64,000 nt of DNA from an uncultured Candidatus Saccharibacteria bacterium (GTDB lineage: Bacteria; Patescibacteriota; Minisyncoccia; UBA6257; WO2-44-18): assembly GCA_964361795.1 (NCBI GenBank), contig CAYIBZ010000002.1, positions 9,362 to 73,361 of the forward strand. Reading direction: 5' to 3'. The translations under genes and the position numbers were made by a program. Shown here one piece after another: positions 20,558 through 24,001 of this stretch; the first letter of the stretch is position 1; each line of letters opens with the position of its first letter. Under the pieces are notes generated by a model. It did no database searches and was not told where the DNA came from. It saw only the letters and a list, made by a program, of their open reading frames with translations.

Positions 20558-21742
20558 TTATTTTCGATTCCAGGGAATGCGCGGCTGGATAATAGTGATG
20601 TCAATCAAATCTCTGACATTCATAATTTCTTTCAGCATGGAATTAACTAATTCTTCGGAGAGTTTAATCGGCTTCAATCCTAGTTTCAGCAAGGATTCAT
20701 TGTTGGCATTATAGTAGTGCTCCTCTTTTTCAATTCGGGGATTAGGTAAATGATCAATACTGACTTTCAAACCAAGCTTAGCGCCTGCTTTCTGAACGGC
20801 CTCGGCCAGCTCAAGAACAGAAAATATCTCGGTGAACTGGTTGAGAACGCGGAATTCTGCCTCTTGGGCAGGATTCTCCACCGCCAAGGTAACGCACTGC
20901 AAAGTATCTCTAATGTTCAAAAATCCGCGCTTCTGTCCACCCTTGCCGTAAACGGTCAACGGGACACCAGCTACTGCTTGAACGCAGAAACGGTTTAGCG
21001 CCGTACCGAAGATGTCGTCGTAGTGAAAACTGGTCAAAAGACCCAGATGCAATTCGGTGCAATCTGTATGGATGCCATAAACAACGCCCTGGTTAAGGTC
21101 AGTGGCTCTTAAACCCCAAGTACGGCAGGCAAACTCGATGTTATGGCTGTCATGTACTTTGCTTAAGTGATAAAAAGACCCAGGACGTTTGGGATACAAA
21201 AGACGATCTTGCCGCCCTTTGTGTGCCACATTCAACCATCCCTCTTCAATATCTATGTTTGGCGTTCCGTATTCACCCATAGTCCCCAGCTTAACTAAGT
21301 GAGCACTAGGAACGTAACGTTTGATAGCAAATAGAAGATTAAGCGTGCCAACCACGTTATTTTTCTGTGTGAAAGCTGCCTTCTGTCGGCTAAACATCGA
21401 ATAAGGAGCTGATGGCTGTTCCGCGTAATGAATAACAGCATCTGGCCGAAACTCTTCAACAATCTTGAATAGGAATCGGTCATTCTCCGCTATGTCGCAA
21501 GCATAAATCTTAATTGTCTTACCGGTGACTTGCCGCCAAACACTGGCCCGTCTCTGCAGAGACGGTATCGGCCATAATGGCATGGAACCAAATTCAGCTT
21601 CCCAAACTCTTTTAGCCATGTTGTCCACAACTACCACATCATAGCCACGGTTGGATAAATGCATTGCTGTCGGCCATCCAAGGTAACCATCACCGCCAAG
21701 AATCATGATCTTCTTCACTTTGACTCCTTTTAAAAGTGCCAT
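20558..21742 (-). CDS. sqdB: UDP-sulfoquinovose synthase (SQD1/SqdB/Agl3-like)
   Basis: Long near-identical blocks to plant SQD1: [103 protein letters not shown]. Confidence 0.8.
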   Translation of the reverse strand: [394 protein letters not shown]

Positions 21743-21775
21743 TTCATTCTAACTGACATAATACAACTTTATCTA

Positions 21776-22972
21776 TTATTTACGCAATAGTCGCTGATCA
21801 AGGGTAACCCGCTTAAGAATTTCTACTATCTTTTCAGAAGATCGCCCGTCACCTAACCGATAACCACAACGACGTAAAGTGTTCTGGAATATAATGGTTG
21901 GAGACAAAACCAATTGCAACCCCATCTTAATAGAATTGATATCTGTGCCAACTTCAATCACATTTTCTTCACGATCTCGTCCACGTTGCCGATTTCCAGT
22001 ATTTAACGCTGGAACCTGAAAATAAGGCGCTTCAACAAACGCGGCAGAAGAATTGCCAATGATTGCTTTAGCCGACGCCATCAGACCCAAGAAATCCAGA
22101 TTATCTATATTCTTGTACGCCAAAAACTGTGTTGGAAAGTCTCGTAATGCTTCGTTAATGGCCAAAATAACGGACTGGTAGCCAGGGTCGGAACAGGGAT
22201 GTACAACCACCGCACGTAATCCGGTATCTCTAACGACAGAAAGAACGGCTTTCGCTGTCTGGTAATTCTCTTTCGCAGACTCAAAAGTGTCAGGATGAAA
22301 TATAATAATAAAATAATTTTCTCCATTCTTGAGGCCGTATTTTTCCATTGCCGCCTTCGGGTCGGTGTACATTTTTTTTACGATCCGATCGACATATAAA
22401 GAACCTACAATATGAATTTGATCCTCTTTCTCCCCTAACTCCCGGATTTTTTTAGCCGCTTTTTCGGTTTCTGGGAAATGAAGGTGGGCCAACTTAGTAA
22501 TTGCGTGTCGTTGAATATCATCAACATTCCCAGATGATTCACCTCCCTGGGTATGACCGACTGGGATGCCTAAGTTATTGGCGGCAAGAGCCATAATTAG
22601 ATGCTCGCCGCGATCACCGTGCACCATTAAAATATCTGGATTTAATTTTCTCAAAATTCTAGGAGCTTTACTAAGACACGTCGCCAAATTCTCCACTCGA
22701 ATCTCTGGAGTATCGCCGCGGCCCGTGCCCATTTCCACCGTCTCAATCTTAGAATTTGGGAAATAGCCTAAGGCTTCATTAAGAGTCCTGCCAAATTCCA
22801 CGGAAGCATGCATATCGCCGAGAATAATTTGCAATTCCAAATCTGGATCGGAAGCAACTAACTTCATAAATGGCATATAGGCGCCGAACCCGCCCCGCTT
22901 GCCAGAAAAGATCGCTATTCTTCTTGGTTGGCTCATATAGAATCTCCCAATATTTATCAAAAGACTAATCAA
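21776..22972 (-). CDS. UDP-N-acetylglucosamine 2-epimerase family (Epimerase_2; NeuC-like)
   Basis: ILMVHGDRGEHL and GNSSAAFVEAPYF motifs characteristic of the UDP-GlcNAc 2-epimerase family. Confidence 0.65.
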   Translation of the reverse strand: MISLLINIGRFYMSQPRRIAIFSGKRGGFGAYMPFMKLVASDPDLELQIILGDMHASVEFGRTLNEALGYFPNSKIETVEMGTGRGDTPEIRVENLATCLSKAPRILRKLNPDILMVHGDRGEHLIMALAANNLGIPVGHTQGGESSGNVDDIQRHAITKLAHLHFPETEKAAKKIRELGEKEDQIHIVGSLYVDRIVKKMYTDPKAAMEKYGLKNGENYFIIIFHPDTFESAKENYQTAKAVLSVVRDTGLRAVVVHPCSDPGYQSVILAINEALRDFPTQFLAYKNIDNLDFLGLMASAKAIIGNSSAAFVEAPYFQVPALNTGNRQRGRDREENVIEVGTDINSIKMGLQLVLSPTIIFQNTLRRCGYRLGDGRSSEKIVEILKRVTLDQRLLRK

Positions 22973-23017
22973 TAAAACAATTTAAGAAATCTAAAGGTTT
23001 CTTTTGAAAGACTCACA

Positions 23018-23320
23018 CTAATTACCGCCTGTTTTACTTGTATTCTGATTTGCTGAAACAAATTTATGATTAATCAGTTTTTCCAATCGGAATTTTCCCC
23101 AACGGATATTATTCCAAATCCGTTCGTGAAAAAAGAATATGACAGTAGCAATTATTTCTCTTACTAACACTACTTTTAATGAAATGCTGAAACTTCTAGT
23201 GAATAGCCAGGCGGCCGCAAAAGTATTTATCGTTCCAATCAGACGATGAGATATTGCTTTAACTACAGATCGGATTTTCCTTTCCTTTTCGCCTCTGATT
23301 ATTGGAATTGGATTCTCCAT
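23018..23320 (-). CDS. small membrane protein (DUF2061-like)
   Basis: 100 aa with two hydrophobic helices. No strand-overlap conflict. Weak family assignment. Confidence 0.3.
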   Translation of the reverse strand: MENPIPIIRGEKERKIRSVVKAISHRLIGTINTFAAAWLFTRSFSISLKVVLVREIIATVIFFFHERIWNNIRWGKFRLEKLINHKFVSANQNTSKTGGN

Positions 23321-24001
23321 TTAAAGTTTAGTGTGAAGGCCACATTCGCCGCCGACATTTTTTGTGCCGCCAAATCTGCCGGCGCGTTCAAATTGGCCTT
23401 GGCGTCCGCCGCCTTCACGAGTTTTACCAGAAGTAGTGCAAGGTTTACATCCCAAAGATAGATATCCTTTGTCGTAAAGAGGGTGATAGCTTAACTTATT
23501 TTCTTTTATATATTGCCACACATCGTCTTTGGTCCAAAAAGCAATGGGATTAATTTTGACAATTTTTCCAGTTTCGACCAGAGGAGTATTTTTGCGGTAT
23601 TCCGTTTCATCACGACGGAGTCCCGTAATCCAAGCGTCATATTTATTTAAAATGCTATTAATAGCGGGAATTTTCATTTCACAACACTTATATTGATCAT
23701 TTTTTATAAAAGATTCGCCGTACTCCTTATCGATTCTTGTTTTATCGTCCGAAGACGGCTTAACCCATTGGAAATTCATTCCTAATGTATTAACAAGAGA
23801 ATCTGCAAATTTCAGTGTTTCATCAAATTCATATCCCGTATCAATACCAATAAACTGGGCTACGGGATTCACTTGCATGGCAAGATCAACTAAAACACGA
23901 GAATCTTTACCAAAAGAACAGGCCACAAAAAGTTTCGGATAGGCTTGGGCTGATAATTTGATTATAGTTTTTGAGAGATCAACTTTTTCTTGAAGAGTCA
24001 T
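23321..24001 (-). CDS. cysH: adenylyl-sulfate / phosphoadenylyl-sulfate reductase (thioredoxin-dependent, Fe-S type CysH)
   Basis: Collinear with CysH: SFGKDS PP-loop, IDTGYEFDET, GLRRDE, KINP..W, YHPLYDKGYLSLGCKPCT and C-terminal ECGLH. CC...CxxC Cys pairs are typical of [4Fe-4S] APS reductases. Confidence 0.75.
   Translation of the reverse strand: MTLQEKVDLSKTIIKLSAQAYPKLFVACSFGKDSRVLVDLAMQVNPVAQFIGIDTGYEFDETLKFADSLVNTLGMNFQWVKPSSDDKTRIDKEYGESFIKNDQYKCCEMKIPAINSILNKYDAWITGLRRDETEYRKNTPLVETGKIVKINPIAFWTKDDVWQYIKENKLSYHPLYDKGYLSLGCKPCTTSGKTREGGGRQGQFERAGRFGGTKNVGGECGLHTKL

Follow-up and report, generated by a model that had tools for sequence, protein, structure and literature searches.

A stretch of 64,000 nucleotides from an uncultured Candidatus Saccharibacteria bacterium (assembly GCA_964361795.1, contig CAYIBZ010000002.1, positions 9,362 to 73,361; hereafter the window) carries a homolog of the uridine diphosphate (UDP)-sulfoquinovose synthase SQD1 and a CysH-type reductase of adenosine 5'-phosphosulfate (APS) or 3'-phosphoadenosine 5'-phosphosulfate (PAPS). 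We propose that two adjacent minus-strand transcription units, the first of which contains both genes, jointly constitute a module for the synthesis of an activated, sulfonated acidic cell-surface sugar, a reading to which we give a probability of about 0.5. The chances seem just as even that the sulfosugar would be routed through a NeuC-like epimerase to a sulfonated, cytidine monophosphate (CMP)-activated sialic-like acid. More tentatively, and at somewhat less than even odds, the gene content suggests that Patescibacteria and some Alphaproteobacteria may make a 9-deoxy-9-sulfo nonulosonic acid.

The SQD1 homolog

An earlier note on this DNA, made from the sequence alone, had recognised an SQD1/SqdB/Agl3 homolog in the open reading frame (ORF) at the centre of the module (Table 1). 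The match is far beyond chance, as all sequence blocks quoted in the note are present and the protein aligns over its full length with the sequence of the Arabidopsis SQD1 crystal structure (1QRR, E=1.1e-153, residues 10-393), with 57.7% identity across 383 aligned residues. The database gene call (P0001, 386 aa) begins 8 codons past the first ATG. A review of nucleotide-sugar dehydratases gives [ST]MG...Yx3K as the SQD1/Agl3 signature (PMC8987622), and this signature is intact in the window enzyme (T154-M155-G156, Y191 and K195, corresponding to T145, M146, Y182 and K186 of SQD1). The four SQD1 residues that the earlier note had singled out for checking, Thr145, Tyr182, His183 and Lys186, all have their counterparts (T154, Y191, H192 and K195). 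In Agl3, alanine mutants of H95, R101, M145, E147 and Y148 are inactive or impaired, with the Arg101 mutant being inactive (PMC4388408). The window enzyme retains H105, M155, E157 and Y158 at these positions, and has Pro110 at the position of Arg101. In the alignment, every segment lining the sugar pocket is the same as in SQD1, and therefore UDP-glucose is the likely substrate. We rejected a switch in specificity to UDP-N-acetylglucosamine, as the pocket-lining segments contain no clade-specific change and P173L is the sole clade-specific change.

Judged by its sequence, the protein thus appears to resemble SQD1 and Agl3 in most of the features used to define the family. The exceptions are the residue at the position of Arg101 and the score against the strict equivalog model for UDP-sulfoquinovose synthase (NCBIfam NF041015), which covers the protein end to end with 472 bits, under the cut-off of 575. 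The family as a whole is split between an Arg101/Asp267 type (n=38, among them the enzymes of plants and cyanobacteria) and a Pro/Asn type (n=44), and the change of Arg101 to Pro covaries perfectly with that of Asp267 to Asn (P110 and N276 in the window enzyme). Positions 229 and 231 likewise covary, being either Arg229/Asp231 or Ser/His. Clades whose SQD1 is paired with one glycosyltransferase, as in classical sqdB, contain the Pro variant too. This pattern suggests that an inter-domain salt bridge, rather than the sulfite site, may have been lost. We considered the replacement of Arg101 as a sign of lost function, and discarded this interpretation given that it covaries perfectly with D267N and that Pro is present in classical contexts of SQD1 with a glycosyltransferase.

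CysH and its linkage to SQD1

The second ORF highlighted in the earlier note, as a CysH-type Fe-S reductase, is also correctly placed. It matches PAPS_reduct (PF01507; 9e-46, 156.5 bits) and scores 186 bits against NCBIfam NF002537, over the cut-off of 154. Its closest solved relative is the Fe-S reductase of M. tuberculosis (7LHR, 2.8e-33), with which the motifs YKCCEM and LGCKPCT, containing the CC...CxxC Fe-S cysteines, and the C-terminal ECGLH align. The two genes that the note had counted between CysH and SQD1 encode a small DUF2061 membrane protein and a NeuC-like epimerase. Within the 64 kb of the window, we found no sulfite reductase, ATP sulfurylase (Sat), CysDN, APS kinase, cysteine synthase (CysK) or TauE permease, and the related loci likewise lack sulfite reductase, ATP sulfurylase and APS kinase.

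A metagenome scan anchored on CysH identified 36 close relatives (57-80% identity). SQD1 lies directly downstream of CysH in 16 of these and 6.5 kb away in one more, whereas sulfite reductase (NIR_SIR) lies directly upstream in 13; one relative has neither context and five contigs end too early to judge. The possibility, raised in the earlier note, that CysH belongs simply to a cysteine operon and is unlinked to sqdB in related genomes does not agree with the 16 relatives in which SQD1 follows directly. In a neighbour-joining tree, the sulfite-reductase-linked CysH sequences form one subclade (GC content 55-60%) that is nested in the SQD1-linked diversity. The assimilatory and SQD1-linked contexts were exchanged inside one tight clade. 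The sulfite-reductase-linked genes, found on GC-rich contigs (loci L109-L115, L117, L118 and others; related loci are referred to by such numbers throughout), are 67-71% identical to the window CysH.

Sixteen metagenomic loci, along with L001, L002 and L087, have a CysH with 69-80% identity to the window protein directly upstream of SQD1, which brings the number of distinct loci outside the window where the two genes abut to about 19. At one locus, in a Candidatus Uhrbacteria genome, a TauE-family sulfite/sulfonate permease is also encoded. CysH is thus a member of a typical assimilatory family that, here and repeatedly elsewhere, has lost its sulfite reductase partner and gained SQD1. This is the pattern expected of a dedicated sulfite supply, an idea put forward in the earlier note that is now well supported for a surface-glycan cluster of the candidate phyla radiation (CPR). 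In L121 (2870-4602), a canonical-type NeuB with an IPANA loop adjoins a CysH that is cut off before ECGLH, with no SQD1 at the locus; the cassette appears to have decayed here. We also considered CysH and the 2-hydroxyacid dehydrogenase of the module as complementary alternative sources of sulfite, and rejected this as no such pattern was present across the loci.

The replacement of Arg101 by Pro would also fit an enzyme that operates without sulfite, as a UDP-hexose 5,6-dehydratase that feeds a 9-deoxy nonulosonic acid, with CysH serving general sulfur assimilation. Agl3 yields UDP-glucose-5,6-ene without sulfite in vitro, and a pseudaminic acid pathway of Bacillus thuringiensis uses the 5,6-dehydratase Pen (PMC8987622, PMC4388408); moreover, CysH is not adjacent to SQD1 in about half of the loci. 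However, at least 19 loci without sulfite reductase have CysH directly before SQD1, and one locus adds the TauE permease. The enzyme, 58% identical to SQD1, retains all its other catalytic and pocket residues, and the Pro variant is also present in clades with the single glycosyltransferase typical of classical sqdB. We therefore consider a sulfite-free dehydratase very unlikely.

Conserved partners of the SQD1 clade

To place the window SQD1 among its relatives, we used a scan anchored on SQD1 with one genome per species, which gave 80 loci. In a neighbour-joining tree, the window enzyme groups with those of other Patescibacteria and of Rhodospirillales-type Alphaproteobacteria. A separate clade contains Arabidopsis SQD1 and the enzymes of a cyanobacterium, Alicyclobacillus, Chloroflexaceae and Acidobacteriaceae. 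The neighbours of SQD1 within 4 kb were clustered into families, and only the NeuC-like epimerase and CMP-synthetase families track the clade of the window enzyme, with no glycosyltransferase family co-occurring with it across the loci. In the other SQD1 clades, one GT21 or GT2 glycosyltransferase lies beside SQD1.

This distribution bears on the simplest interpretation of the two genes, namely classical synthesis of the sulfolipid sulfoquinovosyl diacylglycerol (SQDG), or a CysH that merely serves cysteine biosynthesis. The family assignments alone would allow it. Yet there is no SqdX/SQD2/SqdD-type partner, in agreement with the earlier note: no GT4 in the window reaches any curated specific-family cut-off, and no glycosyltransferase is linked to the clade. 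The clade itself is distinct from the sulfolipid-type enzymes, the window lacks sulfite reductase, CysK, Sat and CysDN, and both genes lie inside a glycan cluster that spans over 50 kb. This makes sulfolipid or cysteine synthesis highly improbable.

Seven more Patescibacteria loci were found through close protein homologs, and in all of them NeuC and CMP-synthetase lie beside SQD1. Pooling the searches, this type of SQD1 occurs with NeuC and/or CMP-synthetase in 28 distinct loci of Patescibacteria and Alphaproteobacteria besides the window. Both partners are present in 22 of the 28, NeuB in 14, CysH in 15, a 2-hydroxyacid dehydrogenase in 11 and a TagB-like transferase in 15. The gene order is permuted from locus to locus while the gene set persists: it is NeuC-CysH-SQD1-CMP synthetase-transferase-2-hydroxyacid dehydrogenase-NeuB in L122, the rest of which is syntenic with the window from 50.5 to 40.5 kb, NeuC-CMP synthetase-2-hydroxyacid dehydrogenase-CysH-SQD1-NeuB-transferase in L101, and NeuC-methyltransferase-CMP synthetase-CysH-SQD1-NeuB in L001. 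The last of these loci has two complete and otherwise equivalent sets of NeuC, CMP synthetase and NeuB, of which CysH and SQD1 are the sole difference. The alphaproteobacterial operons are compact (ABC exporter-NeuB-NeuC-2-hydroxyacid dehydrogenase-(B12 radical S-adenosylmethionine (SAM) enzyme)-CMP synthetase-SQD1-transferase) and carry a single CMP-ulosonate-type transferase, which is KpsS/C-like and follows SQD1. Contigs paired on equal size give lower bounds for this linkage: at least 10 contigs of at least 6 kb are common to the best 120 SQD1 and best 120 NeuB homologs, and the list of best SQD1 homologs shares at least 18 of the 54 NeuC contigs that measure 10 kb or more.

The earlier note had described the neighbours of SQD1 as envelope glycan enzymes. 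The glycan cluster stands, as does its cell-surface setting in a genome of the Patescibacteria (CPR), but the neighbours are not generic: the conserved partners of the clade are enzyme types of nonulosonic acid synthesis, namely NeuC, CMP-synthetase and, in half of the loci, NeuB. The sulfoquinovose-bearing glycan modelled on Agl3 that the note envisaged is therefore probably incomplete, as NeuC and CMP-synthetase as partners favour a CMP-activated acidic sugar.

Organisation of the module

Every gene of the module is encoded on the minus strand, with transcription running from high toward low coordinates (Table 1). Terminator-like hairpins follow SQD1 and the deacetylase, and the module therefore splits into two transcription units. 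Unit 1 contains, in order, the TylF-family methyltransferase, CysH, the DUF2061 protein, the NeuC-like epimerase and SQD1, followed by the terminator. Unit 2 contains the CMP-synthetase, the 2-hydroxyacid dehydrogenase, the TagB/BFO_1060-like transferase and the deacetylase. The position of the terminator after SQD1 means that NeuC is grouped in the CysH-SQD1 unit and not with the CMP-synthetase.

Table 1. Features of the module in the window.
Feature	Coordinates	Strand	Remarks
TylF-family O-methyltransferase	24110..24823	-	Pfam TylF 6e-22; probably first gene of the sulfosugar unit
Fe-S CysH-type APS/PAPS reductase	23321..24001	-	Proposed dedicated sulfite source
DUF2061 small membrane protein	23018..23320	-	Pfam DUF2061 2.5e-15; abuts CysH
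NeuC/LegG-type hydrolysing UDP-sugar 2-epimerase	21776..22972	-	TIGR03568 300.9 bits, over the cut-off of 235.9
SQD1/SqdB/Agl3-family UDP-sulfoquinovose synthase homolog	20558..21742	-	P-type clade of nonulosonic acid context
Intrinsic-terminator-like hairpin	20527..20551	-	Perfect 9-bp stem and T-run; 6 nt past the SQD1 stop codon
CMP-ulosonic-acid synthetase homolog (NeuA/PseF/KdsB family)	19781..20503	-	Pfam CTP_transf_3 3.9e-24 (passes)
PGDH-like D-2-hydroxyacid dehydrogenase	18817..19776	-	Recurrent module member
TagB/Glyphos_transf BFO_1060-like transferase	17489..18820	-	Pfam Glyphos_transf 9.8e-8 (passes)
CE4 polysaccharide deacetylase	16599..17501	-	Pfam Polysacc_deac_1 8e-24; final gene of unit 2
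Bidirectional terminator-like hairpin	16570-16587		After the deacetylase

For the NeuC-like epimerase, the top solved structure is LegG of the legionaminic acid pathway (5XVS, 1.7e-54, 34% identity), which acts on a C6-modified sugar. The epimerase is found next to or near SQD1 in 25 of the 28 related loci. The SQD1-linked epimerases of CPR genomes form a clade of their own, and paralogs from the same genomes cluster with LegG. An apparent fusion of NeuC and SQD1 in L030 proved to be an artefact of ORF extension in high-GC DNA. The CMP-synthetase homolog is found in 25 of the 28 loci as well; it scores 158 bits against TIGR03584 (PseF), under the cut-off of 205.7, and its matches in the PDB are CMP-N-acetylneuraminic acid (CMP-Neu5Ac) or CMP-Kdo synthetases only. 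Orthologs of the 2-hydroxyacid dehydrogenase occur in 11 related loci, Alphaproteobacteria included. The TagB-like transferase reaches 71 bits against NF046086, under the cut-off of 200. BFO_1060 orthologs of Tannerella forsythia (Tanf_01245/TFUB4_00887) are genetically proven pseudaminic/legionaminic acid transferases (PMC5420450).

Among the remaining genes, the TylF-family methyltransferase also lies upstream of NeuC-SQD1 in L082 and L083, and the deacetylase is retained in L082, L083, L089 and L090. A DUF2061 homolog with 43% identity lies about 3 kb from CysH-SQD1 in L106 and L107, and the DUF2061 protein could be related to the handling of sulfite or sulfate.

Proposed pathway

The enzyme families, the operon structure and the recurrent linkage described above were observed directly, and the catalytic steps of the following pathway are inferred from them. 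CysH would reduce APS or PAPS to sulfite, in a cluster that has no sulfite reductase to use it up. SQD1, given its 58% identity and conserved active site, would add the sulfite to UDP-glucose via a 4-keto-5,6-ene, resulting in a UDP-6-deoxy-6-sulfo-hexose. Conserved gene linkage suggests that the NeuC/LegG-type epimerase may then hydrolyse off UDP and release the free 6-sulfo sugar, which NeuB, as found in 14 of the 28 related loci, would condense with phosphoenolpyruvate to a 9-deoxy-9-sulfo nonulosonic acid. The CMP-synthetase would activate this ulosonic acid with cytidine triphosphate, and the TagB/BFO_1060-like enzyme would transfer the CMP-activated sugar to the glycan that the GT4/GT2, Wzx and GT-C genes around the module assemble. 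The sulfosugar is more likely an intermediate of such a CMP-activated acidic sugar than a final UDP-donor, because the conserved partners of the clade are NeuC, CMP-synthetase and, in half of the loci, NeuB. NeuB-family enzymes that take C6-anionic sugars exist, as exemplified by the Neu5Ac-9-P and ketodeoxynonulosonic acid (KDN)-9-P synthases.

Several points weigh against this pathway, among which are Pro110 and the low family score of the SQD1 homolog. NeuB was not found by tblastn (up to 8 diverse NeuB queries, E<=0.1, 208 kb in all) in the window, in L134, which reaches 9.9 kb past the window start in the same genome, or in the six closest related loci, nor did the contigs of this genome or of its closest relatives have a match among the best 120 NeuB homologs. 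In the SQD1-linked NeuBs, a Glu aligns at the position of Asn74 (see below), in a loop whose alignment is uncertain. A source of APS or PAPS is lacking too, as neither the window nor ten unannotated neighbours of CysH-SQD1 loci yielded Sat, CysDN or CysC. We know of no hydrolysing 2-epimerase that takes a 2-hydroxy or 6-sulfo UDP-sugar. Finally, the pathway argument as a whole is built on gene context, and its product is a prediction.

The sub-lineage in whose clusters NeuB was not found always retains NeuC, SQD1, CMP-synthetase and a transferase in its modules, as well as the 2-hydroxyacid dehydrogenase and the CE4 deacetylase wherever the locus extends far enough. In L122, neuB directly follows the dehydrogenase, and so the neuB for both modules of the window genome may sit just past the sequence reached, which covers about 74 kb of the genome. 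The neuB of this genome would be either outside these 74 kb or replaced. Replacement would lead to a route without NeuB, in which the released 6-sulfo sugar is oxidised to a 6-sulfo-aldonate and, by the PGDH-like dehydrogenase, to a 2-keto (hex-2-ulosonic) acid that is CMP-activated and transferred. The retention of dehydrogenase and CMP-synthetase throughout 208 kb of sub-lineage clusters in which neuB was not found is consistent with this route, as is a second triple of NeuC', CMP synthetase' and dehydrogenase' in the genome that again has no neuB within reach; the family of the dehydrogenase includes 2-ketogluconate reductases, and the cluster contains GFO/IDH/MocA oxidoreductases. However, NeuB and the dehydrogenase occur together in many loci, which argues that the dehydrogenase is no general substitute for NeuB, and the module has no aldose 1-dehydrogenase or lactonase as a conserved companion. 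To our knowledge, no hexulosonic acid has been documented to undergo CMP activation, and the view of the genome spans only about 74 kb. We consider this route very unlikely.

In NeuB of N. meningitidis, Asn74 of the beta2-alpha2 loop touches the C6-OH of N-acetylmannosamine (PMC11339185). The SQD1-linked NeuBs lack the IPGNA loop with this Asn74 and share basic residues there, followed by a W-x-x-R-(L/M)-(K/R) motif. These basic residues may favour a sulfonated substrate, which is suggestive only given the uncertain alignment of the loop. These NeuBs do retain Arg314, the contact to the N-acetyl group. A 429-aa protein (P0234) comprises NeuB, SAF and part of 2-Hacid_dh_C, and is either a fusion of NeuB and dehydrogenase or a read-through gene call.

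The most serious alternative to a sulfonated nonulosonic acid is that the cluster makes two sugars for one glycan. As in the Agl3 system, SQD1 and CysH would produce UDP-sulfoquinovose or its 2-epimer for direct transfer by a GT4 or GT2 enzyme, and NeuC, CMP-synthetase and, in other loci, NeuB would separately make an ordinary acid of the Neu5Ac or legionaminic type. NeuC, NeuB and NeuA are a self-sufficient canonical pathway that needs nothing else to make Neu5Ac from UDP-N-acetylglucosamine, so that SQD1 could belong to a separate, co-located pathway. The five GT4 and two GT2 enzymes of the window could use UDP-sulfoquinovose, and the unchanged sugar pocket of SQD1 fits ordinary UDP-sulfoquinovose as its product. 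The conservation of Arg314 in the SQD1-linked NeuBs and the deacetylase, which implies an N-acetylated intermediate, also agree with two sugars. On the other hand, NeuC and CMP-synthetase, and no glycosyltransferase family, co-occur with the SQD1 clade, and the compact alphaproteobacterial operons have one CMP-ulosonate-type transferase after SQD1. CysH and SQD1 are interleaved with nonulosonic acid genes in many permutations, the two equivalent sets in L001 are distinguished by CysH and SQD1 alone, and the terminator groups NeuC with SQD1. Together with the separate clade of SQD1-linked NeuC, these observations favour a sulfonated acid, and the synthesis of two separate sugars appears possible but doubtful.

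The surrounding glycan cluster

A single, very large glycan cluster occupies the window from about 50.5 kb to its start. It contains five GT4 and two GT2 glycosyltransferases, a Wzx flippase, YfhO- and PMT-type membrane transferases, many methyltransferases, two radical-SAM enzymes and sugar nucleotide enzymes, and GT-C genes are also among the glycan-assembly genes around the module. Four paralogous TagB/Glyphos_transf-like proteins are encoded in it. Besides the module member, these BFO_1060-like paralogs are located at 10675-11988, 27848-29188 and 39214-40569 (minus strand), and a fifth is found at 15205-16560 of L134. Each of the five comes after a different set of sugar-modifying genes, so that one surface may bear several acidic sugars or phospho-sugars with different decorations.

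At the cluster border, a 1297-aa protein with one PG_binding_1 domain is encoded at 50545-54438 (minus strand). A protein of this type lies beside the GT4 block in L086, L088, L089 and L122 as well, and because this position is kept in relatives it is a candidate for a glycosylated surface protein. The cluster further contains a 709-aa fusion of a short-chain dehydrogenase/reductase with a UDP-glucose/guanosine diphosphate-mannose dehydrogenase (7837-9966), a fatty acid desaturase homolog (33487-34530) and a YfhO-like membrane protein (30436-32586), all on the minus strand. Of its radical SAM enzymes, one is B12-binding (14501-16561, plus strand) and the other has a SPASM domain (13043-14338, minus strand). 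The former is 44% identical to an enzyme located between the dehydrogenase and the CMP-synthetase in an alphaproteobacterial SQD1 cassette (L003), which points to a possible C-methylation or other radical tailoring of the sugar. The closest relatives (L086, L088, L089 and L090) retain serine hydroxymethyltransferase and FolD in their glycan cluster, possibly as a source of one-carbon units for N-formyl or methyl decorations; these two genes are not found in the window.

L134 belongs to the same genome, as its overlap with the window is 99.99% identical over 10,980 bp. In the part that reaches past window coordinate 1 (10929-20927 of L134), the cluster goes on with heptose-type genes (GHMP kinase, SIS/GmhA-like and TAL_FSA), a formyltransferase, a phosphopantetheinyl transferase and a DegT aminotransferase. 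The second, paralogous triple of NeuC', CMP synthetase' and dehydrogenase' lies behind the DegT aminotransferase and the formyltransferase, and has no neuB there.

Significance and comparison with known systems

Until now, sulfoquinovose has been encountered as the head group of a lipid and as a residue of an archaeal N-glycan. Among sialic-like acids, sulfate esters are known, but we know of no C-S sulfonate. In the full text of open-access papers and bioRxiv preprints, we found no paper that links sulfoquinovose with nonulosonic acids and none that joins "nonulosonic" with "candidate phyla radiation"; in the portions seen of papers that mention sulfoquinovose together with NeuB or pseudaminic acid, no link was evident. 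If the proposed pathway is correct, sulfonated nonulosonic acids would add a new class to the natural sugars and an unrecognised sink to the organosulfur cycle. As a permanent, phosphorus-free anionic cap, such an acid would give a fixed negative surface charge to ultra-small, probably episymbiotic groundwater bacteria, and its enzymes could open access to hydrolysis-resistant sialic acid mimetics. The cassette consists of five or six genes and recurs across phyla, and the idea is directly testable, with calculated [M-H]- values of 331.034 for a KDN-type and 372.061 for a Neu5Ac-type 9-sulfo product. Even if two separate sugars are made, a dedicated APS reductase that feeds SQD1 for a bacterial surface glycan is, as far as we found, undescribed.

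Among known systems, Agl3 of the Sulfolobus acidocaldarius N-glycan is an SQD1-family synthase that, as proposed here, serves a cell-surface glycoconjugate and not a lipid, and the window enzyme shares its [ST]MG...Yx3K signature and its essential His, Met, Glu and Tyr. Unlike Agl3, the window enzyme is bacterial, has Pro at the position of Arg101, comes with an APS reductase of its own and has NeuC and CMP-synthetase as partners. Because of these partners, UDP-sulfoquinovose is probably not the final donor, unlike in the Agl3 case. SQD1/SqdB with SqdX/SQD2, which make SQDG in plants, cyanobacteria and others, belong to the same family (58% identity to Arabidopsis SQD1), and sulfite from APS reduction is their sulfur donor, as is proposed for the window enzyme. 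In contrast to the SQDG pathway, the window SQD1 falls in a separate clade, has no lipid glycosyltransferase as its partner and is physically linked to CysH, a linkage to sqdB operons of which we know no description.

The NeuC-NeuB-NeuA pathway of Neu5Ac and the LegG-LegI-LegF pathway of legionaminic acid resemble the module in their hydrolysing 2-epimerase and, in related loci, NeuB; the module also has a CMP-synthetase homolog and a putative counterpart of the TagB-like nonulosonic acid transferase of Tannerella forsythia. They differ in that the window module includes an APS reductase and a probable sulfonating enzyme of the SQD1 type among its genes and has no aminotransferase or acetyltransferase in its set and no neuB locally. 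The closest precedent for the proposed chemistry is the Neu5Ac-9-P/KDN-9-P synthase route of animals and Bacteroides thetaiotaomicron, in which a NeuB-family enzyme converts a C6-anionic hexose to a C9-anionic nonulosonic acid. In that route, the phosphate is removed by a phosphatase, whereas the C-S sulfonate proposed here would be permanent.

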